In this document: positions 7,479 through 42,453 of the stretch, in pieces
Layout of the letters: each line of letters begins with the position of its first letter
Position numbering within the stretch: the first letter of the stretch is position 1
IMG/VR virus record: IMGVR_UViG_3300042259_000159
Direction: 5' to 3' (one strand)
Length of the DNA: 64,000 nt
Source of the DNA: a virus
The notes under the pieces: model-generated
Told to the model about the DNA's origin: nothing
The model's database searches: none
Seen by the model: the letters and a program-made list of their open reading frames with translations, nothing else
Program-made: the position numbers and the translations under genes

Positions 7479-8855
7479 ATGGAGATGTTTTTTAGCAACA
7501 AAGAGGTTATCAGGGCTTGGGAAAATGTTGTGAAAAAACTTAACGCCAGCGGTTTTAAAGGTGCCATTGTTGGCGGTGCAGTTAGGGATGTTTTTATGGG
7601 AAAGACTCCCACAGATATAGACATTGCTACAAATGCAACACCAGAGGAGGTTTGTAGCATCTTTAAAGGTGCTAAACTTGTTGGTGAAAGCTTTGGTGTT
7701 TGCCGTTGGAATGGCTATGAAATTGCTACTTATCGAAACGATGTCCACAACGGTATTGGTGATACTTGTTGCACCGTGAGGTATACAGACGATCTCATTG
7801 AAGACCTTAGGCGTAGAGACTTCACAATGAATGCTTGTGCATATGAGAGGCATCCTGACGGGACAACGCATTTTGTTATGGCACAGGCAGGTTGTCTGGA
7901 TGACATCGAGAATAAGCGTCTTGATTTTGTAGGCAATGCTGAAGATAGAATCAGGGAAGATCCCAACCGCAGCTTCAGAGCATACCGCATGATTTGCAAA
8001 ACAGGCTTTCTGCCGTCATATGCTACAGCAAAGATAATATACAACAGAGGTATTGTTGAAAAATATCTTCCGTACATTGCACCTGAGAGGATAGGTAAAG
8101 AGCTTATAAAATCTATGGAGGAGCCTTTCTCTTGGAATTTTTTTAGGTGTCTTTACAGGTCTGGTATTATGTACACTCTCATCCCTGAGATGGCACAGGC
8201 TTGGAATATTTGGGGAGGAAAATACCATGCAGAGTACGTTGGTGAACACCTTATGGCTGTTGGTATGGGTATCTCTGCAAAATTCCCCTTGCTGAGGCTT
8301 GCAGGGTATCTGCATGATGTTGGTAAGGGGGTAACACACGAGGATGGCAGCTTCATCCGGCATGAAAAAGAGGGCGTGCATATTGCGCGGAGGTTTCTTA
8401 AAAGCCTTAAGTTCTCTACAAAAGATACAGAGAAGGTTTGCAATATAATTCGTTGCCATATGCGTAGATTTGGTGAGAATGAAACGCCTGCTACAAACAG
8501 GCGAACCCTTGCATATCTTGCAAAACACAATGTCTGCACATACGATTTCATCCGTTTGCGGATTGCGGATCACAACGGCAACTTTGCATGCAAGAAGATG
8601 AAATTCAGAGATATTAAGTCCCTTGTCAGATGTTGGGACACCTATCAGTTTGAAAAACAAGCTGCCCATAGTAGGAAAATGCTTGCCATTAATGGCAGGG
8701 ATATTATGAAAGAGTTTAATATCCCTCCGTCAAGACTTGTTGGGGAGATGATTGAATTTGCCCATAATATTGTTCTTGACAATGTTGATAAAAACGAATA
8801 TAGTATCCTTATCAATGAAATTAAAAAGCGGTTCGGAGGTAGCAATGGCGAATGA
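7479..8855 (+). CDS. tRNA nucleotidyltransferase (CCA-adding enzyme) with HD phosphohydrolase domain
   Basis: Pol-beta nucleotidyltransferase motif GGAVRD...DIDIAT, RRDFTMNA; HD motif HLMAVG...YLHDVGK. Confidence 0.75.
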   Translation: MEMFFSNKEVIRAWENVVKKLNASGFKGAIVGGAVRDVFMGKTPTDIDIATNATPEEVCSIFKGAKLVGESFGVCRWNGYEIATYRNDVHNGIGDTCCTVRYTDDLIEDLRRRDFTMNACAYERHPDGTTHFVMAQAGCLDDIENKRLDFVGNAEDRIREDPNRSFRAYRMICKTGFLPSYATAKIIYNRGIVEKYLPYIAPERIGKELIKSMEEPFSWNFFRCLYRSGIMYTLIPEMAQAWNIWGGKYHAEYVGEHLMAVGMGISAKFPLLRLAGYLHDVGKGVTHEDGSFIRHEKEGVHIARRFLKSLKFSTKDTEKVCNIIRCHMRRFGENETPATNRRTLAYLAKHNVCTYDFIRLRIADHNGNFACKKMKFRDIKSLVRCWDTYQFEKQAAHSRKMLAINGRDIMKEFNIPPSRLVGEMIEFAHNIVLDNVDKNEYSILINEIKKRFGGSNGE

Positions 8856-9033
8856 ACTTAATCTAAGGCTTAAGCTTAACGATGTGGAGAGGGAGGCAGC
8901 CACCTACAGGGCGGTATGCAAGATGTTGTTTAATAGAATGTCTTCAGCAGGAGACCTTGCATTCATCCACAAAAAGGATCTTCAAAAAGCACTTGACAAA
9001 TATAAGGAGGTATCACAAGATGCAAATATATAA
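8845..9033 (+). CDS. hypothetical protein
   Basis: ATG after GGAGGTAG. Confidence 0.45.
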   Translation: MANELNLRLKLNDVEREAATYRAVCKMLFNRMSSAGDLAFIHKKDLQKALDKYKEVSQDANI

Positions 9034-9439
9034 ACCGAGCCACTTCAGGATTGAAGAACTTGTTGACAAAAAAACTTTCAACGACAGAGGCGAGAAGGCT
9101 TGGCAACTTTTGGATGACAGGGCTTTGTTTGTTCTTCAGCTTCTCAGAAAGCGTTATGGACCCATTACAGTTAACAACTGGCTGTGGGGAGGGGACAGAC
9201 AGTGGAGCGGCCTTAGAACAAAAGAGTGCAGTATTGGTGCAACATATTCTCAGCACAGGTTCGGAAGAGCCTTTGACTGTCTTATTAAAAACGCCACTGC
9301 CGAAGAAGTTAGAAAAGATATGCTTGACTTCTGGCCAAAACAGATGTATAACTTCCCTATCACGATGGAAGACGATGTAAGCTGGTTCCATTTTGATACG
9401 CGGCAACAGGAAAATCCAGTAACCATTTTTAAACCGTAA
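9020..9439 (+). CDS. endolysin, peptidase M15 (L-Ala-D-Glu / D-Ala-D-Ala peptidase-like)
   Basis: SQHRFGRAFD (SxHxxGxAxD) and downstream WFHFD; ATG 9020 after AGGAGG. Confidence 0.7.
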   Translation: MQIYKPSHFRIEELVDKKTFNDRGEKAWQLLDDRALFVLQLLRKRYGPITVNNWLWGGDRQWSGLRTKECSIGATYSQHRFGRAFDCLIKNATAEEVRKDMLDFWPKQMYNFPITMEDDVSWFHFDTRQQENPVTIFKP

Positions 9440-9440
9440 A

Positions 9441-27679: not shown

Positions 27680-30600
27680 CTAAATGCTTTTATCTACAAA
27701 CTTTCTCTGTGGAAAATCAAATTCCCGCCTTGTTTTATTCCAAGCTTTTACGGGTGTAAAAAACCCAACAACCCTTGTCAGCTGTGTACTTATATCTTCC
27801 GAACATATGGGGCATGTACTGAAGGAACCCATAGAGACATGGGAGTTGATACACTCAGAGTATACGGTATTAATGGCAAAATGTTCACATCCACAACCCA
27901 AAGCAAAACAGATAATTTTCTTGGCCTGCTCTCTTGTCAGCCTCTGCCCGACAGTGGCATGAACAATCCCCCCGCCTGTTAGGTTTTTAGTATATTCTCC
28001 GTCAATTCTGAGCCTGTCCCACAGAGATGCCTCTTCCCACAAAGGAACAAACTGGTTTGCATAGAGAGGGTATTCTATAAAAGTATCGCCGTGAATGATC
28101 TTATCTGCGCTGCAAACTTTTACAGCCATACTCTCTGCTGGGATTTGCTCAATGTTGAAGACATATCCTGCGTTCTTCTTGGTATACAATCTAGCTTTTC
28201 TGTTAAGAAATGTCAAGATCTTTTTCTTCAAATCCCCCTCAACACCGAACCTTTGTTTAAGAACCTTTTCACACTCGTAAAGACCAAGAATACCAAACGT
28301 TGAAAAGAGCCTGTTGAGGTCTATCCACCCACGCGTTATAAAAGGCTGAAGACCTATTTGTTCAAGGACATGAATCAAGACCTTATGAGCAATCAGAATA
28401 TCTTTAGCAGCCTCTACACGGTACGTGTATATTTTCCAAAAATCATCAATACTCTCGGCCTCAATTGCCATCTTGTTGAAATTAAGAGTAACAACTCTAT
28501 GGCTCCCGATGCTGGAAAGAACACCGGCACCGAAAGAATTGGAGGTGGATGCCACATCTAACATCTCTTCATCATTGATCAATCGGCAACAGCTAGCGAT
28601 CTTTGTGCTCTCAGATGTGAAAATATTGTAGCGCGAAATGTCTCTATTAAGAAATATTTCCAAACTCTCTTCGTCTGCAAGGATGTAATCATCGCCGTCC
28701 TTAGTTTTTGAAATGTTCATCGTGCAAACAGGGAACCTGTAAGGCATCCCGTTATTTGAGGGATCTCCTTTATCAAAGATGTCTAGGAATATTTCCTGCA
28801 ATTCAAAAACATAGTCAACACACTCTTCTATATCTACAACACCACCATCTGAAAACATCCACAAAAGATGTTCCTTTATGATGTACCTGAGTTTGTGTTT
28901 ATCAAACACCGATACATTGGTAAAGGGACTCTCAACTCCGTCACGACTCAAATGGTTTACGCTGTGAATAAGCTGTTGAAACTCGTTTTCTATCTCTTTC
29001 CTCACAGCCTTATCGTTTTTAAGCACATCAAGGGGAACCTTATTCTTTATCATGAGAAGGTGAGCAACATCTATAAATACAGTACCTATGGCTAGAGCAC
29101 CAGCAACATGCGATGACATTTGGTGGATTGTCTCACACAGGGCGGCAATATAACTATTAACTCTTTTTGCCGGTTTAGAGGGCAATACTCCAAAAGTTCT
29201 TCCTTCTGTAATGAGATTTGTTGCGTTTAAAGAATAACAATTATGTTGCACCATTCCGTTTGCATAAAAACGGCCCGTTGCTGTTGTCAAATCATATACG
29301 TCTTGAAGCTCCTCTCTAAGCTTTCTTGTACTAGGAATGTCTTCAAGATTAAACCTGATGATTTTTACAACCCTGTTGCTTTCGCCCTTGGTGTTTGCTT
29401 TTTCATTATACTTATCATAGTCTTCTTTATGCATCTTCATCTTATCAGAAAGATCAACCATCTTATTCGTACTTGACGGGACAAAGGAAAGGGCATAAAT
29501 CGAATTAGAAATATCACTCCCTTTTATCCTTTTTCTAAGGCATCGAATACCTTCAATGCCTCTAAGGACGTCATAAAGTGTGTTTATTACTGCCATAGAC
29601 TGCAAACAAATCTCCACCCTGCCATTCTTTTTGTAGGTATATCCGTCCGCGTCTACAAGCCCCGCAACAAGTGCCTCTACAGAATCATTTGTCCAAGAGA
29701 GGATGTTCTTAGGAAGAACCTTTGTGAAGCTATTTTCTTTGTTCCCGAAACCAAAAAAGGCACTTACAAGAAAATTCATATCATAAGAAGACCAATTAAT
29801 CTGTCTCTCGACTTTATCACTGGGCTTAAAAAGATTCGCATCAGGAAACAAGTCTTTTATGATACTATAAATTCTTGAGTTATCAATATCGTTTTGATAA
29901 ACACTGCAAAGCGTTCCCCCTCTTGTAAATCTGAAAGAGCCTTTTATGTCCTTACCGTTCATTACGCCATCATCAACACAATACCCTTCAAAGTTCCCAT
30001 CACCAAGCATAAAGCCAAGAAGGTAGGCCAGCTTTTCTGGAACAATTATTGTTTTTTCCACGGAGGGCAAACAAGTCTCTGTCAAAACAGCATCCCCAAC
30101 AGAAAGTTCTGAGGCTATTTTTTCAGTTCCATCTTCCATATAGATTGGGTGGTTGTCTGTTACCAAAGCAAAGTGCCCTGCCTCTGTCTGATACAAAGAG
30201 AATCCTGTATCCGTTTTATGCTTGATAATACGTTGTACAGCAACCCATCCATTGTTTGTATCCCAAACCTCTATATTAACTTTTTCACTCACATTGCAGG
30301 CCAACTTACCGGAACGACCTTTTGCGGTGTTCTTGTTAGTGATGTTCGCACTCACATTATTACGCAGCATTGCTGTTGTAATCTCTAGATCTCTTGTAAG
30401 GCCTTTTGTGTTAATTTCCTCATGCGTACCCCTATTTTCGGAGTGTATTGCAAACATATTGAAAAGCTTTTTAAGAGGAATACAAATAATCTCTCCGTTA
30501 ATTCTGACAAAAACAGGCGTGTTTCCATAATACGAATATGGAAGGTTTAGCTTCGTGCTGTCGGAGATGGGAAGACTGAAATCCAACATTTCTCCTATAA

Positions 30601-30982
30601 GCCTTTTAGCCCTCTTCTTGCCGTAGAGTTCCTTCATAACACGGTAGAGGAAATCGTACCCTGCAATTTTTTTCTGGGGGGCACTTGCCTCACTCTGTAT
30701 TCCGGCAATTGTCTTCTCATTCTTATTAGCATTGTCATCAATAGAGACATCATTAATGTTTGCATTTAATTGTTTTTGAAACATCTTGAGAAAGTCTGTA
30801 TTGTCCTGCGAAAGACCATGCAGACGCATAAGTTTTTCAGCTTTTGTATCAATCTCTTCTTGAGAAAGGGTTGTTTTACGAGAAAGATTCCTTTTCAAAG
30901 CCTTAAGCATCTGTTTCCGTGTGTATTCAATCTCAGCATCATTTGTAAAAGATGAAGAAAAACCTTTAGCTATGCTATTCAA
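27680..30982 (-). CDS. nrdD: anaerobic ribonucleoside-triphosphate reductase NrdD (class III), interrupted by an intein
   Basis: C-terminal glycyl-radical-like TRVVGFF and CPICS zinc site; long ORF; likely TTG start at 30982 (AAGGAG 9 nt upstream) overlapping the nrdG stop; track ORF extends to 31051. Confidence 0.8.
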   Translation of the reverse strand: MNSIAKGFSSSFTNDAEIEYTRKQMLKALKRNLSRKTTLSQEEIDTKAEKLMRLHGLSQDNTDFLKMFQKQLNANINDVSIDDNANKNEKTIAGIQSEASAPQKKIAGYDFLYRVMKELYGKKRAKRLIGEMLDFSLPISDSTKLNLPYSYYGNTPVFVRINGEIICIPLKKLFNMFAIHSENRGTHEEINTKGLTRDLEITTAMLRNNVSANITNKNTAKGRSGKLACNVSEKVNIEVWDTNNGWVAVQRIIKHKTDTGFSLYQTEAGHFALVTDNHPIYMEDGTEKIASELSVGDAVLTETCLPSVEKTIIVPEKLAYLLGFMLGDGNFEGYCVDDGVMNGKDIKGSFRFTRGGTLCSVYQNDIDNSRIYSIIKDLFPDANLFKPSDKVERQINWSSYDMNFLVSAFFGFGNKENSFTKVLPKNILSWTNDSVEALVAGLVDADGYTYKKNGRVEICLQSMAVINTLYDVLRGIEGIRCLRKRIKGSDISNSIYALSFVPSSTNKMVDLSDKMKMHKEDYDKYNEKANTKGESNRVVKIIRFNLEDIPSTRKLREELQDVYDLTTATGRFYANGMVQHNCYSLNATNLITEGRTFGVLPSKPAKRVNSYIAALCETIHQMSSHVAGALAIGTVFIDVAHLLMIKNKVPLDVLKNDKAVRKEIENEFQQLIHSVNHLSRDGVESPFTNVSVFDKHKLRYIIKEHLLWMFSDGGVVDIEECVDYVFELQEIFLDIFDKGDPSNNGMPYRFPVCTMNISKTKDGDDYILADEESLEIFLNRDISRYNIFTSESTKIASCCRLINDEEMLDVASTSNSFGAGVLSSIGSHRVVTLNFNKMAIEAESIDDFWKIYTYRVEAAKDILIAHKVLIHVLEQIGLQPFITRGWIDLNRLFSTFGILGLYECEKVLKQRFGVEGDLKKKILTFLNRKARLYTKKNAGYVFNIEQIPAESMAVKVCSADKIIHGDTFIEYPLYANQFVPLWEEASLWDRLRIDGEYTKNLTGGGIVHATVGQRLTREQAKKIICFALGCGCEHFAINTVYSECINSHVSMGSFSTCPICSEDISTQLTRVVGFFTPVKAWNKTRREFDFPQRKFVDKSI
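29240..30298 (-). other. intein with LAGLIDADG homing endonuclease domain inside NrdD
   Basis: Hint block B VTDNHPIY; LAGLIDADG motifs LAYLLGFMLGDGNF and LVAGLVDADGY; C-terminal VQHN followed by Cys; N-terminal boundary uncertain (may extend to ~30535). Confidence 0.7.
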
Positions 30983-31490
30983 AGCAGTAAACTCCTTCTT
31001 TTGTAAGTTTAACATAATTATTATTATAAAGTTCTTGGTTAGACGAACCAAGTACGAGTTTTGTCCTTTGCCCTTTTGTTGTATCTGACTGGTGCAGTTC
31101 TTTTATATACTCTCCTGTTTTTATAAATTTGAAACCGTTAAGATTAAGGTATTTAACAGTGTCAATATCGTATCCAGTATAAATACATATGTTAAAACAC
31201 CCACCGTATTGTTCTAAGAACTGTGCTGTAAACCCTCTGTTGCAGGAGGCTAGCGGATCTCCACCAAGAAGTACAATATTATTTGTGCGGTATTTTAAGG
31301 TCTCCTGTTTACAATGGTTGTAGAAGTCTTCAATGGAAAATTCCACACCACCCTGATATTCAGGGTTTTGCAGGGAGGGGTTATGACACCCCTTACAGGA
31401 AAAATCACACCCACACATAAAAAGACTTACTGCCCACCCATCCTTTGAGGGGTAGTCTGTAAATGTCATCTCAGAACCTGCAAATCTCAT
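30975..31490 (-). CDS. nrdG: anaerobic RNR activating enzyme NrdG (radical SAM)
   Basis: CGCDFSCKGC radical SAM-type cysteine motif; adjacent to nrdD. Confidence 0.75.
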   Translation of the reverse strand: MRFAGSEMTFTDYPSKDGWAVSLFMCGCDFSCKGCHNPSLQNPEYQGGVEFSIEDFYNHCKQETLKYRTNNIVLLGGDPLASCNRGFTAQFLEQYGGCFNICIYTGYDIDTVKYLNLNGFKFIKTGEYIKELHQSDTTKGQRTKLVLGSSNQELYNNNYVKLTKEGVYCFE

Positions 31491-31492
31491 TT

Positions 31493-32089
31493 TTATCCTT
31501 CTCTTTCCAGAGCAACATCTATAAGGGATTGGAACTCCGGCGGGAGGCTGTTATACATTTTTTGTGCCATTTCCCTTATTTCCCACTGTGCGTCTTTTGC
31601 CATACGGAGTTTTAGAAAATTGATTAATGCTCTTAGATTCATTGTTACCATAATTTTTGTGGTAGTTGCGTTCGGGAACACAAAACGTGCATCCTCTTTT
31701 TTAACCCCAGCATCAAGCAGGCGATTGTATGTGTCCCATATAACCTCCATTGTATCTTCATAAAGATCACGAATATAGCCATCCTCGTGCTCTGATATGC
31801 TTGGTGGAGTGACATAAGAAGGCTCTTCTGTCTTTACATACCTTTGACTTGCCTGTGTATATGATGCAATACGGTGTCTTACCTGTTGATGTGTTAGTGC
31901 GCGGGATACCCCTGTAATTTCAAAACAAAAAGCAGAATGCTCCACAACACTTTCGTGTCCTTTCTTAATACACTTTTTAACAAGCGCTGTATCACTCGCA
32001 CCCCCATTGTCAGAAACACTTTCATAGGGTATTCTGGCAGCACGACAAATAGTTGTGTATTTCAAACAATCAACAAGTTCTACTTTCAT
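31493..32089 (-). CDS. thyX: flavin-dependent thymidylate synthase ThyX
   Basis: ThyX motif RHRIASYTQASQRY; ATG at 32089 after AAGGAGG. Confidence 0.8.
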   Translation of the reverse strand: MKVELVDCLKYTTICRAARIPYESVSDNGGASDTALVKKCIKKGHESVVEHSAFCFEITGVSRALTHQQVRHRIASYTQASQRYVKTEEPSYVTPPSISEHEDGYIRDLYEDTMEVIWDTYNRLLDAGVKKEDARFVFPNATTTKIMVTMNLRALINFLKLRMAKDAQWEIREMAQKMYNSLPPEFQSLIDVALEREG

Positions 32090-32253
32090 TACGCCTCCTT
32101 TTTTACCCAAGATGTGGGCTTATAATCATTGCCTATTCGGCAGTTTTTACACTCTACCTTCCTGTGGTGTCTATAGGGGCCACTTGCACAGCTTATGCAT
32201 GTAAGATTTGTCTCAACATGCCCACGGTTTTTCCTCTCTACAAAGACATTCAT
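32089..32253 (-). CDS. small zinc-ribbon protein (54 aa)
   Basis: CISC...CKNC; GGAGAAACG RBS; below the ORF-track length cutoff. Confidence 0.3.
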   Translation of the reverse strand: MNVFVERKNRGHVETNLTCISCASGPYRHHRKVECKNCRIGNDYKPTSWVKKEA

Positions 32254-32435
32254 CGTTTCTCCTTTTTGCGTTGATAGGTGAATTTAATATTCCCAACCCT
32301 TGCAGGTATAACACTCTTTTCAATAACACGCCCACATGCCTTTTCAGGAATGGAGAAGGTATCTATAATTTCCCCATTACTATTAAACACCACTATAGTA
32401 TCCACAAAACCCCCTAAAGGCTGAAAAAGCCGCTT

Positions 32436-33410
32436 TTAGCGGCAAAAATAAATGTCTGGTGAGAAGGTTAGAAGATCTTTTGTATGCACTGAGTATGAGA
32501 TATCGTTCAAATCCTGTGCTTCGTGTAAAATATCAAACACAAGGAACCCGAAATCTACTGTTCCAGAACATTTCCTCTCTCCGAAAATTGTCTTTGGACC
32601 TTGAAGAGATGGACAAGACATCGCCATATATTTTGTTGTACTGTTTGCAATGTGGTAGTGAACATGCCCACGGAGAATTACATCGCTTTTAGGCTGCATC
32701 TTTTTCTCTTCCCATAGGCGATTCCAGACATATTCTTTCGAAAGCTGTGTTGCCCTCCCGTGAGGGATTCCACTACTTCCAATGGCATGTCTGAGGTCAA
32801 AAAGAATCCCATTAATATCTACCCACAACCTACCATCAAAAATAGCACCTATCTCTTTAGCTAGAACCTCTTCAAAATCCTCACCACCGGCATATGTATG
32901 GTAACCTGTCCCACCAACTAGAAAAATATTCTTACACGGGATTGAATCGAAGACTTGAACAGCTATATCTACTTGCTCGTTGAGGGATGAGGTTATCAGT
33001 CCATTTCCACCATCCTTAGATGCCTTGCCATCAATTGCATCGCCTATGTGAAAAAGTGCATCGATATGGCCTAAGGATGAAACCCCTGTAGAGAAAAAGT
33101 CCCACATCTCTTCTTGCATAGAGGCAATCTTCTTTCTTTCCTCTTTGCTTCCTCCTTGAACGTTAAACATCCAGTCTGGAGGTGTCAAACCAACCTTACT
33201 TCCGCAGTGGGTATCCGAGATAACCAAAACCCTTGAGAAATCCCTTTTACACCTTTCCTCCTCTTTTTCCCACTTTGTGAGACCCTTATACTTATCCTTA
33301 AGAAAGTCGTGAACAGAAGATTTTGGAACCCCTGTTGCGGCAGAAATCTGCCTTATAGACTTCCCAGCCTTTTGCATTATAAGAGCAACCTCTTTCTGAT
33401 ATTCCTCCAT
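32436..33410 (-). CDS. metallophosphoesterase with N-terminal HTH
   Basis: Calcineurin-like motifs SDTHCG, GDAIDG, GGTGYH, GHVHYH. Confidence 0.65.
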   Translation of the reverse strand: MEEYQKEVALIMQKAGKSIRQISAATGVPKSSVHDFLKDKYKGLTKWEKEEERCKRDFSRVLVISDTHCGSKVGLTPPDWMFNVQGGSKEERKKIASMQEEMWDFFSTGVSSLGHIDALFHIGDAIDGKASKDGGNGLITSSLNEQVDIAVQVFDSIPCKNIFLVGGTGYHTYAGGEDFEEVLAKEIGAIFDGRLWVDINGILFDLRHAIGSSGIPHGRATQLSKEYVWNRLWEEKKMQPKSDVILRGHVHYHIANSTTKYMAMSCPSLQGPKTIFGERKCSGTVDFGFLVFDILHEAQDLNDISYSVHTKDLLTFSPDIYFCR

Positions 33411-33447
33411 CTAACCTCCTTTACTCCTGTTTTTGGGAATAGAAATA

Positions 33448-33486
33448 TGGTACTGGCAGCGGGATTCGAACCCACACTGAAGGGGG
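33448..33486 (-). other. tRNA 3' fragment (T-arm + acceptor 3' strand + CCA)
   Basis: GTGGGTTCGAATCCCGCTGCCAGTACCA; acceptor complements the 5' end ACTGGTA at 34153. Confidence 0.55.
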
Positions 33487-33489
33487 GAT

Positions 33490-33950
33490 TTACTTATCTC
33501 TCTGGTAGTAGTGCTTTGATATTGCACTTCTTTCCATTTTTTGAATTTTTTTATTCTGAACGTCGGACCCATAACGTCCAGAACACGTTCTGGAACAAAA
33601 GGGCCCAGCTTTATTTTTAATGTTTCTCTGTGTCACCGTTGGCGTAAAAAGAGAATCGCAATATGGACACTTTACTTCTTCCACTCTCACCCTTACCACA
33701 TCAAGCGAAGCATGGGAGGATCTACACAAAACTTGTAAATTTTCAATTTTGTTGTTCAGTGGATTTCTATCAATGTGGTCAACTGTCTCAGATGGATCTA
33801 AAACTCTGCCCAGATGCACTTCCATTATAATTCTGGAAGCCTGTTTAGCAGTTCTTTTAATTCCATCATATAAAACAATGACCAGTCTACCGTCTTTCCT
33901 TAAATATGGCCCATAAATTTTTTTACACTCTGGGTACAATTTTTGAATGT
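33490..33950 (-). CDS. HNH homing endonuclease
   Basis: HIDRNPLNNKIENLQVLCRSSH; track ORF extends to 34023 but that overlaps tRNA-Leu, so the start is uncertain. Confidence 0.6.
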
Positions 33951-33953
33951 GTT

Positions 33954-34037
33954 TGGTAGGAGAAGAGAGATTCGAACTCTCAAGGAATAATCCGTCGAGG
34001 CTTAAACTCGATGTGTTTACCATTTCACCATTCTCCC
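33954..34037 (-). tRNA. tRNA-Leu (anticodon UAA), type II, CCA encoded
   Basis: Manual fold: acceptor GGGAGAA/TTCTCCT, anticodon loop TTTAAGC, long variable arm, T-loop TTCGAAT. Confidence 0.65.
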
Positions 34038-34045
34038 GTATTTTT

Positions 34046-34067
34046 TATCTACCATTCCGCCATTCCC
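34046..34067 (-). other. orphan tRNA 5' fragment (Leu-like acceptor + D-arm)
   Basis: GCGGGAATGGCGGAATGGTAGA with no matching 3' half. Confidence 0.4.
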
Positions 34068-34076
34068 GCATTTATT

Positions 34077-34153
34077 TGGTACCCACTGTGAGATTCGAAC
34101 CCACACTAATCAGTTTCTAAGACTGATGCCTCTGCCAAGTTGGGCTATACCAG
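34077..34153 (-). tRNA. tRNA-like gene (class I, anticodon UAG) with mismatched acceptor stem; probably chimeric or disrupted
   Basis: D-arm, anticodon arm TCAGT-CTTAGAA-ACTGA and T-arm fold, but 5' ACTGGTA does not pair with 3' AGTGGGT. Confidence 0.4.
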
Positions 34154-34184
34154 TATTATGCTTATTATTTTATTTTGAAAGGCC

Positions 34185-34235
34185 ATATGTATACACATAT
34201 ATATATATACATATATATATGTATAGAGCAACCAA
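34185..34235. repeat. TA-rich microsatellite
   Basis: atatgtatacacatatatatatatacatatatatatgtatag. Confidence 0.8.
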
Positions 34236-34412
34236 AATGGTTAAATAAAAAGGTGTTTTGTGGAGACACCAAACTCCTCCAGTTTTAGTGATCTGGAAAC
34301 AATAAGCGGCGCAGGTGCTCTTTAAAACACGTGCTACCAAGCGTATAAATTGTCTAGGGGATTTCACCAAACACATTATGTTATTGGAGGGATCTTTCCC
34401 TAGACTCAGTAA

Positions 34413-34485
34413 AGCTCCTGACAGGACTTGAACCCGCAACCGGCTGATTACAAATCAGCTGCTCTGCCAGTTGAGCTACAGGAGC
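34413..34485 (-). tRNA. tRNA-Thr (anticodon UGU), CCA not encoded
   Basis: Manual fold: acceptor GCTCCTG/CAGGAGC, D-arm GCTC..GAGC, anticodon loop TTTGTAA. Confidence 0.7.
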
Positions 34486-34489
34486 AGAA

Positions 34490-34561
34490 CAGAGGGAGAA
34501 GGATTCGAACCTTCGAATGACGGGACCAAAACCCGTTGCCTTACCGCTTGGCTACCCCTCT
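34490..34561 (-). tRNA. tRNA-Gln (anticodon UUG), CCA not encoded
   Basis: Manual fold: acceptor AGAGGGG/TCCCTCT, anticodon stem ACGGG/CCCGT, loop TTTTGGT. Confidence 0.65.
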
Positions 34562-34569
34562 AAATTTTT

Positions 34570-34646
34570 TGGCTCCGGCGGCAGGATTTGAACCTACATT
34601 CGCAATGGTTAACAGCCATTTGCCTTACCAATTCGGCGACACCGGA
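34570..34646 (-). tRNA. tRNA-Asn (anticodon GUU), CCA encoded
   Basis: Manual fold: acceptor TCCGGTG/CGCCGGA, anticodon stem AATGG/CCATT, loop CTGTTAA. Confidence 0.65.
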
Positions 34647-34691
34647 ATGAACTTTTTATTTGTTATCAGCATTGTTTTGCTTTATTTTAAA

Positions 34692-34770
34692 TGGTCTCGG
34701 TGATTAGATTTGAACTAATGATTATTCCTGCTCCCAAAGCAGGTGCCATACCAAGCTAGGCGACACCGAG
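34692..34770 (-). tRNA. tRNA-Pro (anticodon UGG), CCA encoded
   Basis: Manual fold: acceptor CTCGGTG/CACCGAG perfect, anticodon stem CCTGC/GCAGG, loop TTTGGGA. Confidence 0.6.
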
Positions 34771-35251
34771 ATCAGGTGTGGTACCAAACTCCACTATGGG
34801 CAGAGGTTATAAGAAGGTCCGTACATGATATAGACAGATATTCTTCCATAACAGCGGTACGGACGCTGTCTCATTTTTATATCTTTCAGTGTGCTATTAC
34901 GCCAAAGGGAAATTAAGCCTTACCAGTTACGGGGTGCCCTTTTACTATCCACAAAGAATTTCAAATCGCGTGCATTCTAAGTATCGGAAAATTCTACAAC
35001 CACTTAAAGTACACCTCGTTTAAGAGATAGCGACCTGTGCTTCGTCCCACTCTTTAAAGGATGGCTGCCTCAAAGCCCACCTCCTGAAAAATGCATGAAG
35101 GATTATCCCTCCTTCGCTAAATACAACCTATCAATTTTAAGGGTTCTTGTCAAGAACATTTTAAGGTTTTTGAAATTTTTGTTGAACGCTGATTTGCTAC
35201 GCGGGTACAGCGTTCGAAACCTCGATAGCATCCTTGCCGTTGGCAAAGCTG

Positions 35252-35393
35252 TCAGGAGCCGCAGGAGGAGAATTGAACTCCTCTGGCATCAACACGCAGT
35301 CACCACAACTACATCTACCGTTACGGGTATGGCTCCCCATCCTAGTCACCTGTTGATACCTTATAGGTTCAGCCCTACCAAGGGCACTGCGGC
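35252..35393 (-). ncRNA. tRNA-like structured RNA (~142 nt) with 7-bp acceptor-like stem and T-arm; possible intron-containing or disrupted tRNA
   Basis: GCCGCAG ... GAGGAGTTCAATTCTCCTC CTGCGGC; body too long for a standard tRNA. Confidence 0.3.
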
Positions 35394-35399
35394 TTAAGT

Positions 35400-35620
35400 G
35401 GGTTGGTTGGTGCAGATTGTGAACGTACCCCCGCCTATAGAGGCGGAAGCTTCCTGCTTCAGCGAGAACAGCACCAGTAACTCCGAAGAGTTGTGGCGAA
35501 TTACACTCTCTCCACAGGCGTAAATTCCCGTGCGACCCACGGTACTTTATGAGTTACGCTAGGCAGATATTCGCCCAGCTTCTTCTCTAATATTTATTGC
35601 AGCGTTCTTGTCACGGTTAT
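35400..35620 (-). ncRNA. putative TnpB guide (omega) RNA region overlapping the tnpB 3' end and right end
   Basis: Position relative to tnpB; subterminal hairpin CCGCC-tataga-GGCGG at 35431-35446; no direct RNA evidence. Confidence 0.35.
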
Positions 35621-36795
35621 GATGACTGCCACACTTAAGGCAATCCCATTCCCGCACAGACAAGTCTTTGGTATCCTTGTTCTGGTAGCCACAGACATGG
35701 CATAGCTGACTGCTTGGATACCATTTGTCTATCTTGATAAGTTGCTTACCCTGCCATGCAAGTTTGTATTTCAGCATACTTGTGAACATGCTCCAGCCGT
35801 TGTCGGATATGGATTTACCAAAGTTGAACTTGCCACCCTTCTTTCGCTTCGCCATGTCCTTTACGCTAATGTCCTCTATGCCAATCACATCATAGCGGTC
35901 TGCAAGATAACGAGCTTTCTTATGCAGGAAGTCGCGGCGTTGATTAGCAATTTTCTCATGGAGTACAGCCAAACGTAGTCTTTGTTTATTCCTATTACGG
36001 CTCCCTTTTTGTCTCTTGGAGAGTTTTCTTTGTGCCTTGATCAATCTCTTTTCGGCTTCCCGTAAGAAATTTGGATAATCGGCGTTGTCCTCATCGGAAG
36101 CAACATACATCCCGTGCATAGCAAAATCCAATCCAAGAAAATTCTTCGGTATGATGGGAAGTATTTGGTTTTCATACTCCACCAAAATACTAATATAGTA
36201 TTTTCCTGACGGTGTTTTACTTATGGTTACAGTCTTTATGGTGCTATTCTCCATCAATGGACGATGCAGACACAGCTTTACCCAACCTATTTTCGGCAGC
36301 TTGACTTTGTTTCCCTCGATTCTTACAGAGCCATGTTGGTTGTTCGTAGAATATGAAGCATGACCCGCTTTCTTCGACTTGAAGCGTGGCTTGCAAAAAT
36401 GCTTCCTATTGCTCCAAAAGTTGTTATACGCCTTGTTCAGGTTTATTTGGGCATTGGCGAGAGCAAGGCTGTCAACCTCTTTCAGCCAAGGAAACTCTTT
36501 CTTGTACTGTGCAGGTGTGTTGTTCAGCCTCTCTCCTGTTTCCTTATAGTGATCAAGACGATCTCCAAGCATCTTGTTATAGATGAATCTGGCACTGCCG
36601 AAAGTCTTGGCAAACATAATCTTCTGTTCAATTGTCGGGTAGAGTCTATATCGGTATGCCTTATTCACTATAATCACCTGCCTTGATTTTCTATGTATTT
36701 ACGAATTGTCTCAAACGGAGCAATTATCTGGCTCAACTACTTACGTAAATTCGCTAGACACACCTTCATCCCCCACCTTAGAGGTGGAGGGCTTC
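35425..36795 (-). mobile_element. IS200/IS605-family element, TnpB-only (IS1341-like)
   Basis: tnpB ORF flanked by similar subterminal hairpins at 36773-36787 and 35431-35446; no tnpA seen. Confidence 0.7.
35559..36677 (-). CDS. tnpB: TnpB (IS200/IS605 OrfB, RuvC-like RNA-guided nuclease)
   Basis: N-terminal YRYRLYPT; C-terminal zinc finger CHVCG...CLKCG; 372 aa. Confidence 0.85.
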   Translation of the reverse strand: MIIVNKAYRYRLYPTIEQKIMFAKTFGSARFIYNKMLGDRLDHYKETGERLNNTPAQYKKEFPWLKEVDSLALANAQINLNKAYNNFWSNRKHFCKPRFKSKKAGHASYSTNNQHGSVRIEGNKVKLPKIGWVKLCLHRPLMENSTIKTVTISKTPSGKYYISILVEYENQILPIIPKNFLGLDFAMHGMYVASDEDNADYPNFLREAEKRLIKAQRKLSKRQKGSRNRNKQRLRLAVLHEKIANQRRDFLHKKARYLADRYDVIGIEDISVKDMAKRKKGGKFNFGKSISDNGWSMFTSMLKYKLAWQGKQLIKIDKWYPSSQLCHVCGYQNKDTKDLSVREWDCLKCGSHHNRDKNAAINIREEAGRISA

Positions 36796-36799
36796 TGGC

Positions 36800-36843
36800 G
36801 GGTTAGGTTAAATCCCTTGTGTCTACTAATTCCACCAATCGGG
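36800..36843 (-). other. partial tRNA-Leu-like 5' fragment next to the IS left end
   Basis: GCCCGATTGGTGGAATTAGTAGACAC duplicates the 5' end of tRNA-Leu at 36940 but lacks a foldable remainder. Confidence 0.4.
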
Positions 36844-36853
36844 CTAAAATCTT

Positions 36854-36940
36854 TGGTGCCCAATGCAGGACTCGAACCTGCACGCCATTTCAGGCAGGAG
36901 GGCTTAAACCTCGTGTGTCTACCAATTCCACCAATCGGGC
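36854..36940 (-). tRNA. tRNA-Leu (anticodon UAA), type II, CCA encoded
   Basis: Manual fold: acceptor GCCCGAT/ATTGGGC, anticodon loop TTTAAGC, long variable arm. Confidence 0.6.
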
Positions 36941-36949
36941 TAAAATCTT

Positions 36950-37033
36950 TGGTGCCTCAGACAGGATTCGAACCTGCACGGATCTCTCCACTTGGTCCTA
37001 AGCCAAGCGTGTCTGCCATTCCACCACTGAGGC
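36950..37033 (-). tRNA. tRNA-Leu (anticodon UAG), type II, CCA encoded
   Basis: Manual fold: acceptor GCCTCAG/CTGAGGC perfect, anticodon stem CTTGG/CCAAG, loop CTTAGGA. Confidence 0.65.
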
Positions 37034-37477
37034 TGAAATTTTAATTAAAGTTTGACATACTCCCCACGGATAAATCCGGGGGATTCTGGATTCAAACAGC
37101 AACGGCGGGTGCAAGCACCCTTCTGTCTGTCATTGAGGCAGTCGCCTTAGAACCAGCCGCTGCACCGAACTCGCTACCGCTGGGCGCTCTGCAAGAACAC
37201 ACTCCCAGATATGTATGCCAATAGCAATTTTTGTCATGTTTCATGTTTACCTCCGCTCGCAGGTGAGCTATTCGTTATATGTCGTAAAATTCATGGCTCG
37301 TGTATTTGCACGGGATTACCCCATGCAAAACGTGCAGGAAGGCAAGCACAGCCTGACGCACGGCCTCCCTTAATGCCTTTTTTGCTACGGCAAAATTCGC
37401 CATCATGTGCTTAAAATAGATCATCATATAACCAGTCAATCAACCGGATTTGCTATGCTCTCCGGTTATTTCGGTCG

Positions 37478-37888
37478 TTAGCCTTCCATCGCCAGCTTGA
37501 TTGCCCGGCGAACTTTCCCAAAATCGTGAATCGAAAACAGGCATCCGCCGAAATTATACCGGCAGACCATCTCCGCATCCAGCCAGCGCAACACCTCCAG
37601 CATTTCAGGGGCGGCTGCAATAAGTTTGGCGTTGGCCTCCATGATTGGCACGCGTCCTTGCACGCCACGGGCAGAGGTTGCACATACCGGGTTGCCGTTG
37701 CAATCCTCTACTATCAACCGGCCTTTTCGGTCCGGCACAACTCCGGCAGTAACCGACCACGGGCCGGGACTATGCACAGGATAATCTTCCCTGTTGTAGG
37801 CTGTTTTCCCATCCGTTATAATTGTCGGCGTTTCGCTATCTTTGCAAACCTTTCCCCGATATGTATTTCCGTCACCGTAGCTATTCAT
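37478..37888 (-). CDS. hypothetical protein
   Basis: ORF track; appears GC-richer than the phage backbone. Confidence 0.4.
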   Translation of the reverse strand: MNSYGDGNTYRGKVCKDSETPTIITDGKTAYNREDYPVHSPGPWSVTAGVVPDRKGRLIVEDCNGNPVCATSARGVQGRVPIMEANAKLIAAAPEMLEVLRWLDAEMVCRYNFGGCLFSIHDFGKVRRAIKLAMEG

Positions 37889-38115
37889 TGGTGTTATCTC
37901 CTTCTTCGGCCATTATTCTTAAAAATTCTTCAAAGTTGTATGCGGCCTTATTCGTCATCTCTATACACCTCCACTTGCTCATGTGATTGTCGGAAACTTT
38001 CGGCAACTTTTTCGGCGACATCTTTTGTCATTAGGCCAGTCCTATACCACTCTCCGGCTTGTTCGTTAATCCATCTCCAGTATTTCACTCGATAATTAAC
38101 ATTTTTTGGCATTGT

Positions 38116-38382
38116 CTATCTCCTCCGCAAGTTGCGCTCTCTGGTCAAGCCACCATTTTTTTCTGACACGTCTTTGTCTCTTTCAATCGTGTAGAGAAGG
38201 TTTTCGGATTTGTCTATCAATTCCTGTAATTGATGATATATTTTCCGGTATTCGTCGTGCGAAATATCCAAAAGTTCCCGCATTCCGTCTCTGGTATTCT
38301 TAAACAACAAGCAATCTGCATCACCACGAGAAAGGCCAAGGTTTGCTTCCATATAATTAAACGGGCAAACAGGCTTTTTCAT
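38116..38382 (-). CDS. hypothetical protein
   Basis: ORF track. Confidence 0.35.
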   Translation of the reverse strand: MKKPVCPFNYMEANLGLSRGDADCLLFKNTRDGMRELLDISHDEYRKIYHQLQELIDKSENLLYTIERDKDVSEKNGGLTRERNLRRR

Positions 38383-38639
38383 GTTGTCTCCTTTATTTCT
38401 TCAATAAGTGTTTCCAGGTCTGAACACTCCTGCTCAAGTGCCTTGTGCAGTGCTTTATTCTCATGAGCACCTTGCATTTCCGAGTACAGCCGCCCGAGCA
38501 ACGATGCTTCCAAGTATGGCAAAACCCTTTTCAACAGTTCACCTCGCAACAAATTTTCAGTAACCTGCTTTTCTTGGTGGTTCTTCATCAGGCAAGAACC
38601 GCAAATAATATTCTCGCTGTGGTTACAGGACGTTATCAT
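38379..38639 (-). CDS. hypothetical protein
   Basis: Overlapping start/stop with neighbours. Confidence 0.35.
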   Translation of the reverse strand: MITSCNHSENIICGSCLMKNHQEKQVTENLLRGELLKRVLPYLEASLLGRLYSEMQGAHENKALHKALEQECSDLETLIEEIKETT

Positions 38640-38878
38640 ACAAACCCCTCAAAATAGCATAACGGCAGCCAACCCCGAATAAGGTGCGTGTCGTGACCAT
38701 CTATCAAGAACCTATCTTCACAACATATCCAATCATACTCGCCGTCGTCTTTCGCGTCGTTCTCCGGAGCAACATTAGAAAACCACGCACTACAAACTGT
38801 TCCGTCATGCAAAAACAACAATATCTGCTGACCGTTTGTCGGTAGTGTTTCCGGGCCATTCAATCGTATTTGATTCAT
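38636..38878 (-). CDS. hypothetical protein
   Basis: ORF track. Confidence 0.35.
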   Translation of the reverse strand: MNQIRLNGPETLPTNGQQILLFLHDGTVCSAWFSNVAPENDAKDDGEYDWICCEDRFLIDGHDTHLIRGWLPLCYFEGFV

Positions 38879-39088
38879 TTACAGTCCTCCAAATGTATTT
38901 TCCATTGCCGTAAACCCGCAGCCTTTTCCATCTGCAAGCGTTTCAACTGCGGCATTAAAACCACGGACGAACGCCGGTGGCGGGTCCGGTATGTCGTCAT
39001 CGTCAGTACCCCAATACTTACGCCAGCTATCCATCATCGTTTTGTTAATCATTTCACTCATCTTCAAAGCCCTCCACGTGCAAATCAT
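38879..39088 (-). CDS. hypothetical protein
   Basis: ORF track. Confidence 0.35.
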   Translation of the reverse strand: MICTWRALKMSEMINKTMMDSWRKYWGTDDDDIPDPPPAFVRGFNAAVETLADGKGCGFTAMENTFGGL

Positions 39089-39544
39089 TGCTCAGATCCA
39101 AGTCAACAAACACCTGCGCCGGTTCCTCTTCCTCGCCGTAATTACCCGATTGCCTGACGGGGCCGGTGAGTATTCTGATGTCTCTTATCATGCATAACAA
39201 CTGTGATCCGTCGAAAGAGAGATTAAACAGCTGAGACAGTTATGCAGGCGTTAACGTTCTTATTATATAGCACAGGAGAAACACTTTGTCAAGCTTTTTA
39301 TAAAACTATTTTAAAAAAGAACTGTTTCGCTGTACATAATTCTGACTTAAGGCCTAGAACAAATAGTAAAACCGGAGGAGGAGCTTCTTTTCATCTAGGA
39401 TGTGACTTCCATGTCTGATAGGCTTTCCGGCGTGTTAAGAAGAATATAACAAACAACACAGGCCTTGTCAAGTGTTTTCTTACATCCCTTATGAGACTCC
39501 TTATTGTTTATATCACAACACCCTGCTGTCATTGCTTCTTCCTC

Positions 39545-40254
39545 TTAGATAGTAAACAGTTTTTCAACACCTTTCTTGCTTCCCGTGTTCTTTGTCAGGC
39601 TGCTTACAATTTCTTTTTTCCAAATGCAAGTAAAATCTTCTGGAGCATTATATTCTGAAACAAACACCTTATGTCCCTCATTAGCCTTATCTCTGCACCA
39701 CTGCCAAAACAACTCATGGTCAAAATCATTAGAGTACTTTGTTGTCCCTGAATAGGGCGGATCACAGTAGATTAAGCTGTTACTGGGGATATGTAGCTCA
39801 TCATAAGGACAACACAAAAATTCTACATTTTGAATTAGCGAGGACTGTTTTATTGCTGATTGCTTACTACGTTTTGTTTGTATTATCATGTTTTCAATAT
39901 CACCTTTTGTTCCTGCTTTGTCCCGCCTATACCCCCCAAAAAATTTACCACCAAAAGACATTGAAAATGCTGTAAATCCAGTTAAACCATCAATATTTTT
40001 GTGTTTTTTCATTGAATTGTACATATCTTCTGTAATAATTTCAGGAATACTTTTTGGTGCATCGCGTATAAGTTTTAATGCTTCTATTACATACGGGCTG
40101 CAATGGCGGCCCCAATACGATTCCCATCAACCTTATCAATCATGTTTCCACCTCCAACAAACGGTTCAACCCACCACTGGTCAGGTTTTCTTTCTGCAAG
40201 CATAATTGGGAGGATATACTTTGCTATTCTGTTTTTACTTCCCATGTATTTCAT
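39545..40254 (-). pseudogene. dam: Dam-like DNA adenine methyltransferase, frameshifted
   Basis: N-terminal part (MKYMGSKNRIA...EPFVGGG) ends at TAA 40091-40093; C-terminal part with IYCDPPY continues in another frame; frames overlap over a CCC run. Confidence 0.65.
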
Positions 40255-40329
40255 ACTTACCTCCTGTTTTTGTTTTAGTTGTAAGGTGCTTTTACCTGTC
40301 AATATCAAACTACCCCTATTCCCCCTGTT

Positions 40330-40470
40330 TGTCAATACCTTATTCTTATCTAAACATAAGATATATATATTATATATATATTCTTTATATAATATAAATA
40401 TATATACTTTATATATAGTATATTTATATAATATATATATGTATATAATATATATACTCCTACTCACTAC
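40330..40470. repeat. TA-rich low-complexity repeat upstream of dam
   Basis: atatatattatatatatattctttatataatataaatatatatac... Confidence 0.8.
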
Positions 40471-40603
40471 GAGACACATACATAATATATACATTAACCC
40501 TTCCTGCAAAGGAAGCCGTAGGATACCATAAAAAAGAGATTTTGTCAAGCATTATTTTAAGAAATGTTAAAAATAATTTCCTAACCTAATCTCTATTTTT
40601 TAC

Positions 40604-40632
40604 TTGACAAAAAGACTTTATTGTGTTATAAC
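40604..40632 (+). promoter_or_regulatory. sigma70-like promoter (TTGACA-N17-TATAAC)
   Basis: tacTTGACAaaaagactttattgtgtTATAAC. Confidence 0.45.
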
Positions 40633-40652
40633 ATAATAGAGGCTAATTTTAT

Positions 40653-40847
40653 ATGGAGGAAAATATGATATACACATACAGGTGTTCAATCTGCAACAAG
40701 CTTTTTACCTCGCACGAGGATGTATACGATGTATACTTAGAAAGCTTTGTTTGTCCTGAATGTCTGCGTGAGGGAAATATCTCCGCTGTCTATGGCGAGG
40801 ATTTCTTAGATTCGCTGGACATGTTCGACAACCCAGAAGATCTTTAA
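40653..40847 (+). CDS. small zinc-ribbon protein
   Basis: CSIC...CPEC; GGAGGA RBS. Confidence 0.45.
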   Translation: MEENMIYTYRCSICNKLFTSHEDVYDVYLESFVCPECLREGNISAVYGEDFLDSLDMFDNPEDL

Positions 40848-40882
40848 TAAAGTATTTTATCAAAAAATAATTAAATAAAGAC

Positions 40883-40910
40883 TTGACAAATGGTTAAAAG
40901 TGTGTTATAA
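40883..40910 (+). promoter_or_regulatory. sigma70-like promoter (TTGACA-N16-TATAAT), candidate late/packaging promoter
   Basis: acTTGACAaatggttaaaagtgtgtTATAAT. Confidence 0.5.
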
Positions 40911-41050
40911 TAGGTTTTGAATTAATAATTAAAAATGATAATGAATTTCATTGTCTTTTGTAATCTTCTAAGATGTCTTAGATAGGCATCCGAAAAGTAT
41001 AGGGGAGTTTCCCTCCTTTTCTCCCCTATAAAATATTAACAGGAGGTAAT

Positions 41051-41922: not shown

Positions 41923-42199
41923 GGTGCCGCAGGTTCGGGAAAGTCATACATAATGAATATGATACCTTTGAGGTATGTCGATTGCCCCAACTTTAGGGGG
42001 ATTGTCTTCCGAAGGGAAACGACACAGCTTACAGGTGAAGGGGGGATGTGGGATACAGCAACGGAGATATACTCTGAGCTGCCTAAAAATATCAGGCCCA
42101 AAATATTGAAACATAACCTGAGAATGATTTTTCCGAATGGGGCAAAAATTAAGTTTTCACACATGGAAAATGATAATGATTTCAGGAAACATCAAGGGT
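41923..42199 (+). CDS. terL: terminase large subunit, exon 2 (Walker A)
   Basis: GAAGSGKSY ... FSHMENDNDFRKHQG. Confidence 0.65.
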
Positions 42200-42453
42200 T
42201 AATTAGTAGCCCCTTGTGTTGGTGACAGCGCAAGCAAACTAACCTAATTCGGTGGAAGCCCAAACATGTAGGATGTGGGTGATACCGAGCAAGCCACGGC
42301 GTGTGTAACGACTAGTTCTTAGGAACGTAGGCCCAAGCGGGTCGAAACGGTTAGCATCTTATTAAGATGAAGATATAGTCTACTCTGCATGGAAACATGC
42401 AGCGGACACTTTATGTGTCGGGCAGATGTTAGCGCCATCTGTTGAATATTATG
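42200..42453 (+). other. group I intron 2 in terL
   Basis: R gtgtgtaacgactagttcttagg at 42301; S gaagatatagtctactctgcatggaaacatgcag at 42369. Confidence 0.6.

Follow-up and report, generated by a model that had tools for sequence, protein, structure and literature searches.

A tnpA-less IS200/IS605-family element with tnpB and a predicted omega-RNA in a tRNA-Leu(UAA)-type gene of a contractile-tailed phage

The element, its ends and its landing site

The DNA considered here (the window) is a stretch of 64,000 nucleotides (nt) from the IMG/VR virus record IMGVR_UViG_3300042259_000159, and its point of interest is a tnpB-bearing element lodged in the tRNA array of a gut phage. Positions 35419..36807 on the minus strand hold what is almost certainly a complete insertion sequence (IS) of the IS200/IS605 family that lacks tnpA. 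Read in its own direction, the element consists of a left end, a tnpA remnant, tnpB, an omega-RNA region and a right end. It belongs to a well-understood kind, that of ISDra2 and ISAam1 but without tnpA, and its location is slightly unusual. The features of the locus, all on the minus strand, are the following.

35419..36807 (1389 bp): whole IS200/IS605-family element, a tnpA-less derivative; similarity to independent copies ends exactly there
36678..36807: left end region, with subterminal hairpin, remnant of the tnpA C terminus and promoter-like sequence
36770-36790: left subterminal hairpin CCTCCACCTCTAAGGTGGGGG, which includes CCACC-ttaga-GGTGG at 36773-36787; preceded by GAAGC; in all copies
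36686-36714: promoter-like TTGAGA-17-GAAAAT within the left end
35559..36677: tnpB, 372 amino acids (aa) from the GTG at 36677; assigned by open reading frame (ORF), Pfam and NCBIfam domains and alignment to ISDra2 and ISAam1
35419..35611: predicted omega-RNA scaffold; conservation and covariation in 41 copies, alignment with the ISAam1 scaffold
35431-35446: right-end subterminal hairpin CCGCCTCTATAGGCGG (CCGCC-TCTATA-GGCGG), 12 nt from the right end; preceded by GAAGC; in all copies
35399..35418 (read 35418 to 35399): guide-determining flank AATCTGCACCAACCAACCCA, the first 20 nt past the right-end boundary
36808..36812: TTTAA target and transposon-adjacent motif (TAM), tRNA anticodon-loop positions 32-36; in 45 of 46 copies, and the same TAM as that of ISAam1
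36808..36844: 5' half (37 nt, GCCCGATTGGTGGAATTAGTAGACACAAGGGATTTAA) of a second tRNA-Leu(UAA)-type gene, 'B', cut at the anticodon, 3' half absent
36854..36940: intact tRNA-Leu(UAA) gene 'A', with a TAM at 36905-36909; its positions 36885-36904 (20 nt) match the guide of a sister phage, contig L002
36950-37033: tRNA-Leu(UAG), first gene of this array segment

Both ends were delimited by comparison with other copies of the element. A protein-seeded scan yielded 25 viral and 66 genomic loci, and about 45 independent copies from Negativicutes genomes and viral contigs served to define the ends. In these copies the element terminates in ...GTACGTTCAC, with unrelated flanks beyond, and its last bases (...GGGGGTACGTTCAC) place the final C at window position 35419. 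At the other side it opens with CCTAA(C/T)CCGCCAGAAG, here CCTAAC, whose first base is 36807, and TTTAA stands directly 5' of this left end in 45 of the 46 copies. Terminal inverted repeats are lacking and similar subterminal hairpins occur at both ends, as in the IS200/IS605 family; the retention of both hairpins in the roughly 45 independent copies makes them a non-chance feature. The insertion 3' of a fixed pentanucleotide without target-site duplication is likewise typical of the family, and is also seen in the sister phage, where removal of the element leaves an intact tRNA gene. An initial annotation, made from the sequence of the window, had recognized a TnpB-only element of IS200/IS605 type in this orientation and had placed the two hairpins exactly at 36773-36787 and 35431-35446; all of this is supported by the other copies and by the sister phage. 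The sharp ends that it assumed do exist, but its positions for them (35425..36795) were 6-12 nt off.

The 372-aa reading frame contains ...NKAYRYRLYPT... at its start and a C-terminal CHVCG...CLKCG, so that the YRYRLYPT start and the zinc finger previously ascribed to a 372-aa TnpB are all present. A second GTG at 36668, preceded by AGGCAGGTGA, would give 369 aa and is the start common to the relatives; this is probably the true start of tnpB. The product matches the Pfam models HTH_OrfB_IS605, OrfB_IS605 and Cas12f1-like_TNB (PF12323, PF01385, PF07282), each above its cut-off, and the NCBIfam model guided_TnpB with 334.7 bits (cut-off 100). It aligns from end to end with the TnpB structures of ISDra2 from Deinococcus radiodurans (8EXA, 8H1J and 8BF8; E value 2e-79), an alignment that sets the RuvC triad D184/E268/D356 (372-aa numbering) and the CxxC..CxxC zinc finger on the corresponding ISDra2 positions. 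The D-E-D catalytic residues, on which the initial assignment had been made to depend, are therefore in place. Identity to the TnpB of ISAam1, whose sequence was taken from the supplement of PMC12433972, reaches 53%. No CRISPR-like repeat array was found within 5 kb (30000-41000), so that the locus lacks the array that a Cas12 assignment would call for.

When the TnpA of a full-length relative was used as tblastn query over the 64 kb, only a 33-aa C-terminal remnant was detected, at 36677-36775, in line with the absence of tnpA from the element noted at the outset. The full-length relatives (L004-L006, L022 and most Phascolarctobacterium copies) encode a 131-aa Y1_Tnp/transpos_IS200 protein between the left end and tnpB. 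Since the window copy retains the 33-aa remnant alone, whereas its relatives carry a full TnpA, it is a non-autonomous derivative that has lost the Y1 (HUH) transposase of the IS200/IS605 family, and we take it to fall in the 'IS1341-type' class of ISfinder. The closest copies reside in Phascolarctobacterium (94-96% amino-acid identity, up to 97% nucleotide identity) and more remote ones in Mitsuokella, Megasphaera and Selenomonas. This distribution points to an element native to Negativicutes, and the host of the phage is probably a Phascolarctobacterium-like Negativicute.

At the insertion site, the minus strand reads tRNA-Leu(UAG), the spacer AAGATTTTA, tRNA 'A', an identical spacer, half 'B' ending in TTTAA, and then the element. 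The truncated tRNA-Leu 5' fragment that had been seen to abut the left end is this half, 37 nt long (36808-36844). It differs from 'A' at 4 of its 37 positions, three of them clustered in the anticodon stem, and would seem to be a separate paralogue, not a copy in decay; ARAGORN finds no tRNA when the two flanks of the element in the window are joined. The choice of a phage tRNA-Leu(UAA) is explained by its anticodon loop, because U32 U33 U34 A35 A36 spells out the TTTAA target and the insertion point falls between tRNA positions 36 and 37. As the TAM and the anticodon loop of tRNA-Leu(UAA) are one and the same, phage tRNA genes constitute natural landing sites. TnpB genes in phage genomes have already been reported in the literature; the coincidence of TAM and anticodon loop is new, and it offers a simple reason for the landing of TnpB elements in phage tRNA genes.

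Other tRNA-derived sequences lie nearby. A third tRNA-Leu(UAA) at 33954-34037, also with TTTAA in its anticodon loop, overlaps the start of an HNH_3 endonuclease ORF (33490..34023). It forms part of a stretch of tRNA debris in the array (33954-34145, minus strand), together with a 5' piece of a tRNA, gcgggaatggcggaatggtagat, at about 34041-34063 and an unusual 69-nt 'tRNA-Leu(tag)' at 34077-34145 (minus strand), which scores only 37.8 bits and has its anticodon at position 27. The segment 35185-35418 was considered as a structured RNA or tRNA-like gene and rejected, with a fold z-score of only -1.5 and no Rfam match.

The predicted omega-RNA and its guide

A structured omega-RNA, as found in OMEGA systems, is predicted to overlap the 3' end of tnpB and to end at the right end of the element, with about 190 nt conserved. 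Its span, from about 35611 to 35419, is set by homology with the ISAam1 editing scaffold, with which it is collinear from the codons for RD.NAAINI through the terminal ...GT(T)CAC. Three parts can be distinguished: a hairpin CCGUG-GGUCG-CACGG, a core CCUGUGGAG...UGAAGCAGGAA resembling RAGATH-18 (35451-35518), and the right-end hairpin. Covariation was examined in an alignment of the final 200 nt from 41 copies; the consensus fold comprises 37 pairs in 6 helices, with 97.5% of the cells paired. Compensatory changes occur at 10 pairs, 7 of them in a variable stem capped by UUCG; the remaining helices vary little and draw their support chiefly from conservation. None of 500 shuffled alignments reached any of five measures, and the paired fraction in slid controls was 39-47%. 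The guide RNA overlapping the 3' end of tnpB, initially expected from what is known of TnpB elements, thus has its counterpart in a conserved, covarying predicted scaffold that runs up to the right end.

The closest characterized system is ISAam1, whose TnpB has been employed in genome editing (Xiang et al. 2023, as cited in PMC11224200 and PMC12433972) with the tested TAM 5'-TTTAA (PMC11224200). The 53% identity between the two nucleases extends over their full length, both being of 369 aa, and the TAM tested in ISAam1 is the one that 45 of 46 insertion sites indicate for the window element, so that the motif derived from insertion sites agrees with that used experimentally in the same clade. 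At the RNA level, both omega-RNAs start in codons for ...RD.NAAINI..., and they share a hairpin ACCGUGGG-N5-CACGG, a right-end hairpin CC(A/G)CCUCU..AGG(U/C)GG and a terminal G.A.GU(U)CAC directly before the guide. They differ in that the central domain of the window omega-RNA is about 30 nt longer and contains the RAGATH-18-like core, absent from ISAam1; moreover, the window copy is tnpA-less and phage-borne, and its activity is putative. ISDra2 shares the D-E-D triad and the zinc finger, and its element plan recurs in the full-length relatives: tnpA precedes tnpB on the same strand, the hairpins are subterminal, the element inserts 3' of a pentanucleotide with no duplication, and the right-end flank supplies the guide. 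However, the ISDra2 TAM is TTGAT instead of TTTAA, its TnpB has 408 aa instead of 369-372, and tnpA is deleted in the window copy. This makes the element a fully delimited natural relative of the ISAam1 editor, with the same TAM, a larger scaffold for the guide RNA and natural variants numbering in the dozens, while the understanding of how TnpB works is left unchanged.

RAGATH-18 (RF03064) is the scaffold core of the right-end element RNA (reRNA) of IS607 TnpBs, and PMC11061315 describes it only with IS607 (serine-recombinase) elements, where it stands separate from the coding sequence. In the window, an Rfam scan matched this model at 35451-35518 with 27.0 bits, below the gathering score of 44.9 and thus outside the family as defined, although the core CCUGUGGAG...CG.UGAAGCAGGAA fits the ends of the model almost letter for letter. 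Unlike in IS607, the relatives encode a Y1 IS200 TnpA as transposase, and the RNA extends over the 3' end of tnpB. An IS200-type element with a RAGATH-18-like core, a motif that PMC11061315 reports solely with IS607, is therefore new.

By analogy with ISDra2 and ISAam1, the guide would be formed by the 16-20 nt past the right end, AATCTGCACCAACCAACCCA. It had initially been sought just beyond that end, at about 35400-35430, a placement that is borne out and can be refined to 35399-35418. A target for this guide would read TTTAA+AATCTGCACCAACCAA. No second match was found in the window at up to 3 mismatches, and the 27 other exact 16-mer matches in IMG/VR, none of them after TTTAA, lie mostly in the conserved coding motif LNESAPTN; as a rough estimate, about this number would be met by chance. 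That the window copy currently has a natural target is improbable.

A second sequence related to the omega-RNA occurs far from the element, in the intergenic gap after an endolysin-like ORF (8882..9439). Positions 9440-9474 (plus strand) contain a 28-nt exact match to the 3' end of tnpB and 5' part of the omega-RNA (35548-35575, minus strand), and 9591-9663 (plus strand) a collinear weak match to the omega-RNA core (AACGCCTGTGGACAGA...GGTTGAAGCAGGAA), with nhmmer E values of 1e-4 and 0.18. The region 9440-9663 has no Rfam match and is present in IMG/VR only in the contig of the window; an older related element probably left its right end here, now decayed.

The sister phage and the state of the window copy

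A sister phage (L002), from another study, carries the same element in flanking DNA that is 92-99% identical to that of the window; the element itself is 96% identical overall and tnpB 98.4%. There it lies within tRNA-Leu(UAA) 'A', and both tRNA halves are kept. In silico removal of the element from L002 gives, by ARAGORN, an 87-nt tRNA identical to window positions 36854-36940, and hence the window carries the exact empty-site allele of the L002 insertion, without any duplication. The element boundaries, which the initial annotation had proposed to define against an empty site, are sharp. Furthermore, the L002 guide GCCCTCCTGCCTGAAATGGC preceded by TTTAA matches window positions 36885-36909 perfectly, so the guide logic appears intact in L002: its guide and TAM fit the unoccupied tRNA-Leu(UAA) of the window. 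Such a pair of sister phages, in which the guide of one fits the intact tRNA gene of the other, is new, and it is well suited to testing TnpB-driven allele conversion between co-infecting phages.

The right flank of the window copy is not the original half-site, having been replaced by rearrangement or deletion. It corresponds to a sequence situated 368 bp further downstream in L002, and the loss from the window comprises the 3' tRNA half of 'B' plus about 370 bp if the L002 layout is ancestral. A rearrangement with a TCA microhomology hence took away the tRNA half and re-programmed the guide. The window copy thereby illustrates how a rearrangement of the flank silently re-programs, and probably orphans, a TnpB guide. 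Avoidance of self-targeting as the cause of the replacement is unsupported, since the 3' half of 'B' would differ from 'A' in TAM-proximal bases anyway, given its different anticodon-stem 5' strand. The occupation of two different sites may stem from two transpositions, from guided homing between paralogues or from unequal recombination, with which the identical spacers are compatible.

A counterpart of the window without the element at 'B' was searched for in several ways. IMG/VR scans returned only the contig of the window and L002 for the downstream flank, and only the contig of the window for the intact-tRNA junction. A search with neighbouring proteins led to the window phage and L002 alone, two metagenome scans revealed no empty 'B' site, and exact-protein look-ups led back to this phage, its arrangement unchanged, or to contigs that stop short of the site.

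How such an element would work can be outlined from its characterized relatives ISDra2 and ISAam1, from which each of these steps is taken. Transcription of tnpB would start inside the left end, and the omega-RNA would derive from the 3' portion of this transcript, from about 35611 to 35419 plus some 16-20 nt of flank. The TnpB/omega-RNA complex would then cut DNA bearing TTTAA and the guide sequence, that is, the unoccupied allele, and recombinational repair from an occupied genome would restore or spread the element. For transposition itself, TnpA would have to act in trans, and full-length copies in the host could be its source.

Taken as a whole, it is very probable that the window holds a non-autonomous IS200/IS605 copy in a phage tRNA-Leu(UAA) gene, structurally complete and now a passenger without target; its present state is most likely that of a complete, currently target-less and possibly slowly decaying passenger. 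Several observations weigh against this account or against the activity that it would allow. With the NCBIfam model IS200_TnpB the protein scores 420.9 bits, 4 bits short of the strict cut-off of 425. There is no tnpA elsewhere in the 64 kb, and no IS-free relative of the window 'B' site is on record. In L002, the sequence corresponding to the window guide follows CTCAA and not TTTAA, and no TTTAA-flanked target for this guide was found in the window, the fetched loci or IMG/VR. The variable stem of the omega-RNA has lost one of its pairs in the window (C-C). Finally, the ratio of non-synonymous to synonymous changes (dN/dS) between the window and L002 tnpB genes is 0.65 on about 18 differences, and the window TnpB departs at 8 positions from 14 relatives that all agree there (Y40H, G92C, V233L, S282N, E300K, N331K, P344L and R365G in 369-aa numbering); one of these private substitutions turns P into L inside the second CxxC (CPKCG to CLKCG).

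Many of these observations, namely the absent tnpA, the replaced flank with a guide devoid of a TAM-flanked target, the dN/dS value, the private changes with one in the zinc finger and the broken RNA pair, would equally suit an inert relic, in which an immobile element with an aimless guide drifts to the loss of TnpB function at no cost, the neighbouring intact tRNA-Leu(UAA) covering for the lost tRNA. The decayed omega-RNA-like sequence at 9440-9663 shows that such decay occurs in this genome. Nevertheless, the reading frame is uninterrupted over 1.1 kb and retains every catalytic residue and zinc ligand, the TAM, both ends and both hairpins are preserved, and the same arrangement recurs at 99.7-100% identity in contigs of three further samples besides that of the window (four samples). 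The dN/dS of tnpB is 0.03-0.2 family-wide, indicative of purifying selection, and the substitutions between the two phages are too few to lend statistical weight to relaxed selection. An inert relic is consequently a serious competitor that we place somewhat below even odds, and the chances that the window copy could still form an active ribonucleoprotein seem, from its sequence, about evenly balanced.

A more active role would be that of a gene drive or competition weapon at the phage level, in which TnpB and its omega-RNA home in the tRNA region during co-infection and convert or exclude the intact tRNA-Leu(UAA) of rivals. The perfect fit of the L002 guide and TTTAA to the intact tRNA-Leu(UAA) of the window speaks for it, as do the presence of the element in two different tRNA-Leu(UAA)-type genes of two sister phages and the wealth of homing-type elements in the window phage (five group I introns, the NrdD intein and an HNH gene by the tRNA array). 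A precedent exists in SegB of T4, a free-standing homing endonuclease of the tRNA gene cluster (cited in PMC13565253). Both are selfish nuclease genes in a phage tRNA array aimed at the tRNA gene of relatives, here the L002 guide against the window tRNA-Leu; since SegB finds its target through the protein itself and is no transposon, the analogy is confined to function. On the other hand, the case is built on two related phages, the window copy is aimed at no known allele, and the same pattern would result if TnpA had inserted the element at TTTAA in the ordinary way and the locus had then been rearranged. We consider this role unlikely. The same low probability attaches to its extension to a drive among myoviruses of the Phascolarctobacterium type, with the anticodon loop as TAM and the 3' tRNA half as guide, in which the L002 type would cut the window-type allele. 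If it were true, the replaced right flank of the window would be an escape or a scar from phage conflict, and the locus a natural case of TnpB in competition between viruses, beyond the retention of transposons in bacterial chromosomes.

A host IS misassembled into phage DNA, suggested only by the general risk of misassembly in metagenomes, or a domesticated Cas12- or TldR-like TnpB can be dismissed as practically negligible, given the same junctions in independent contigs of four samples and in the 96%-identical sister phage, the lack of a CRISPR-like array within 5 kb, and the intact RuvC triad, canonical transposon ends and TAM, which rule out the TldR-like candidate.

Around the tRNA array, L002 and variant contigs differ from the window by block replacements (L002 7310-7627 and 7928-8266; L099 774-1157; L137 2890-3496). 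About 320 bp after the split tRNA of L002 have no counterpart in the window, and a small ORF occupies the place of an rRNA-like element of the window described below. Two variant contigs of the same sample series diverge abruptly at window positions 37272 and 34334. The tRNA-array region is a recombination hot spot.

Other features of the phage genome

The window belongs to a 91.6-kb viral contig (L001, 100% identical) that encodes a tail sheath, tape measure, baseplate wedge, head protease, DNA polymerase, primase/helicase, ligase, CCA-adding enzyme (7479..8855) and endolysin, and its source is a real contractile-tailed phage. Genes for ThyX, NrdG, an intein-bearing NrdD and an HNH endonuclease lie beside the tRNA array. 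NrdD, an anaerobic ribonucleotide reductase (27680-31051, minus strand), adjoins the NrdG-like (Fer4_12) and ThyX genes, and the Pfam model Intein_splicing matches its called 1,100-aa product weakly. Five group I introns on the plus strand (42190-42402, 42559-42828, 43153-43386, 44876-45191 and 46043-46349) score 51.5-95.9 bits, above the Rfam gathering score, and lie unusually densely within about 4 kb upstream of the head-protease gene.

The most intriguing item outside the TnpB finding is a copy or mimic, of about 45-50 nt, of the GTPase-associated centre of 23S rRNA (the L11/thiostrepton region) at 35036-35083 on the minus strand. It matches positions 1097-1144 of the Rfam large-subunit (LSU) rRNA model with 26.7 bits (E value 2.6e-5), a match that a smaller scan did not list, and is situated on the tRNA strand after a promoter-like TTGACA-N17-TAGGTT and before a tRNA Pro-Asn-Gln-Thr block. 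L002 does not have it, and no paper on a phage mimic of the GTPase-associated centre was found in the literature. The sequence recurs at 82-96% identity in 12 phage records, its carriers being the Pseudomonas phages UNO-G1W1, pf16, Milchi and Astolliot, the Xanthomonas phages XacN1 and XaC1, Aeromonas phage 4_4572, Paenibacillus phage Pd_22F and Staphylococcus fragments. In 9 of the 12 records the annotation shows no feature where the match lies; two records are unannotated, and in Milchi it falls under a hypothetical protein. In all four records examined it occupies an intergenic gap. In UNO-G1W1 it is enclosed by the tRNA array, in 4_4572 it precedes tRNA-Met by 260 nt, and in XacN1 it immediately follows a gene for a 2'-5' RNA ligase. 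Its H44-like half shows the same departures from rRNA, judged against the E. coli sequence, in a Pseudomonas phage, so that the mimic looks like a conserved phage small RNA.

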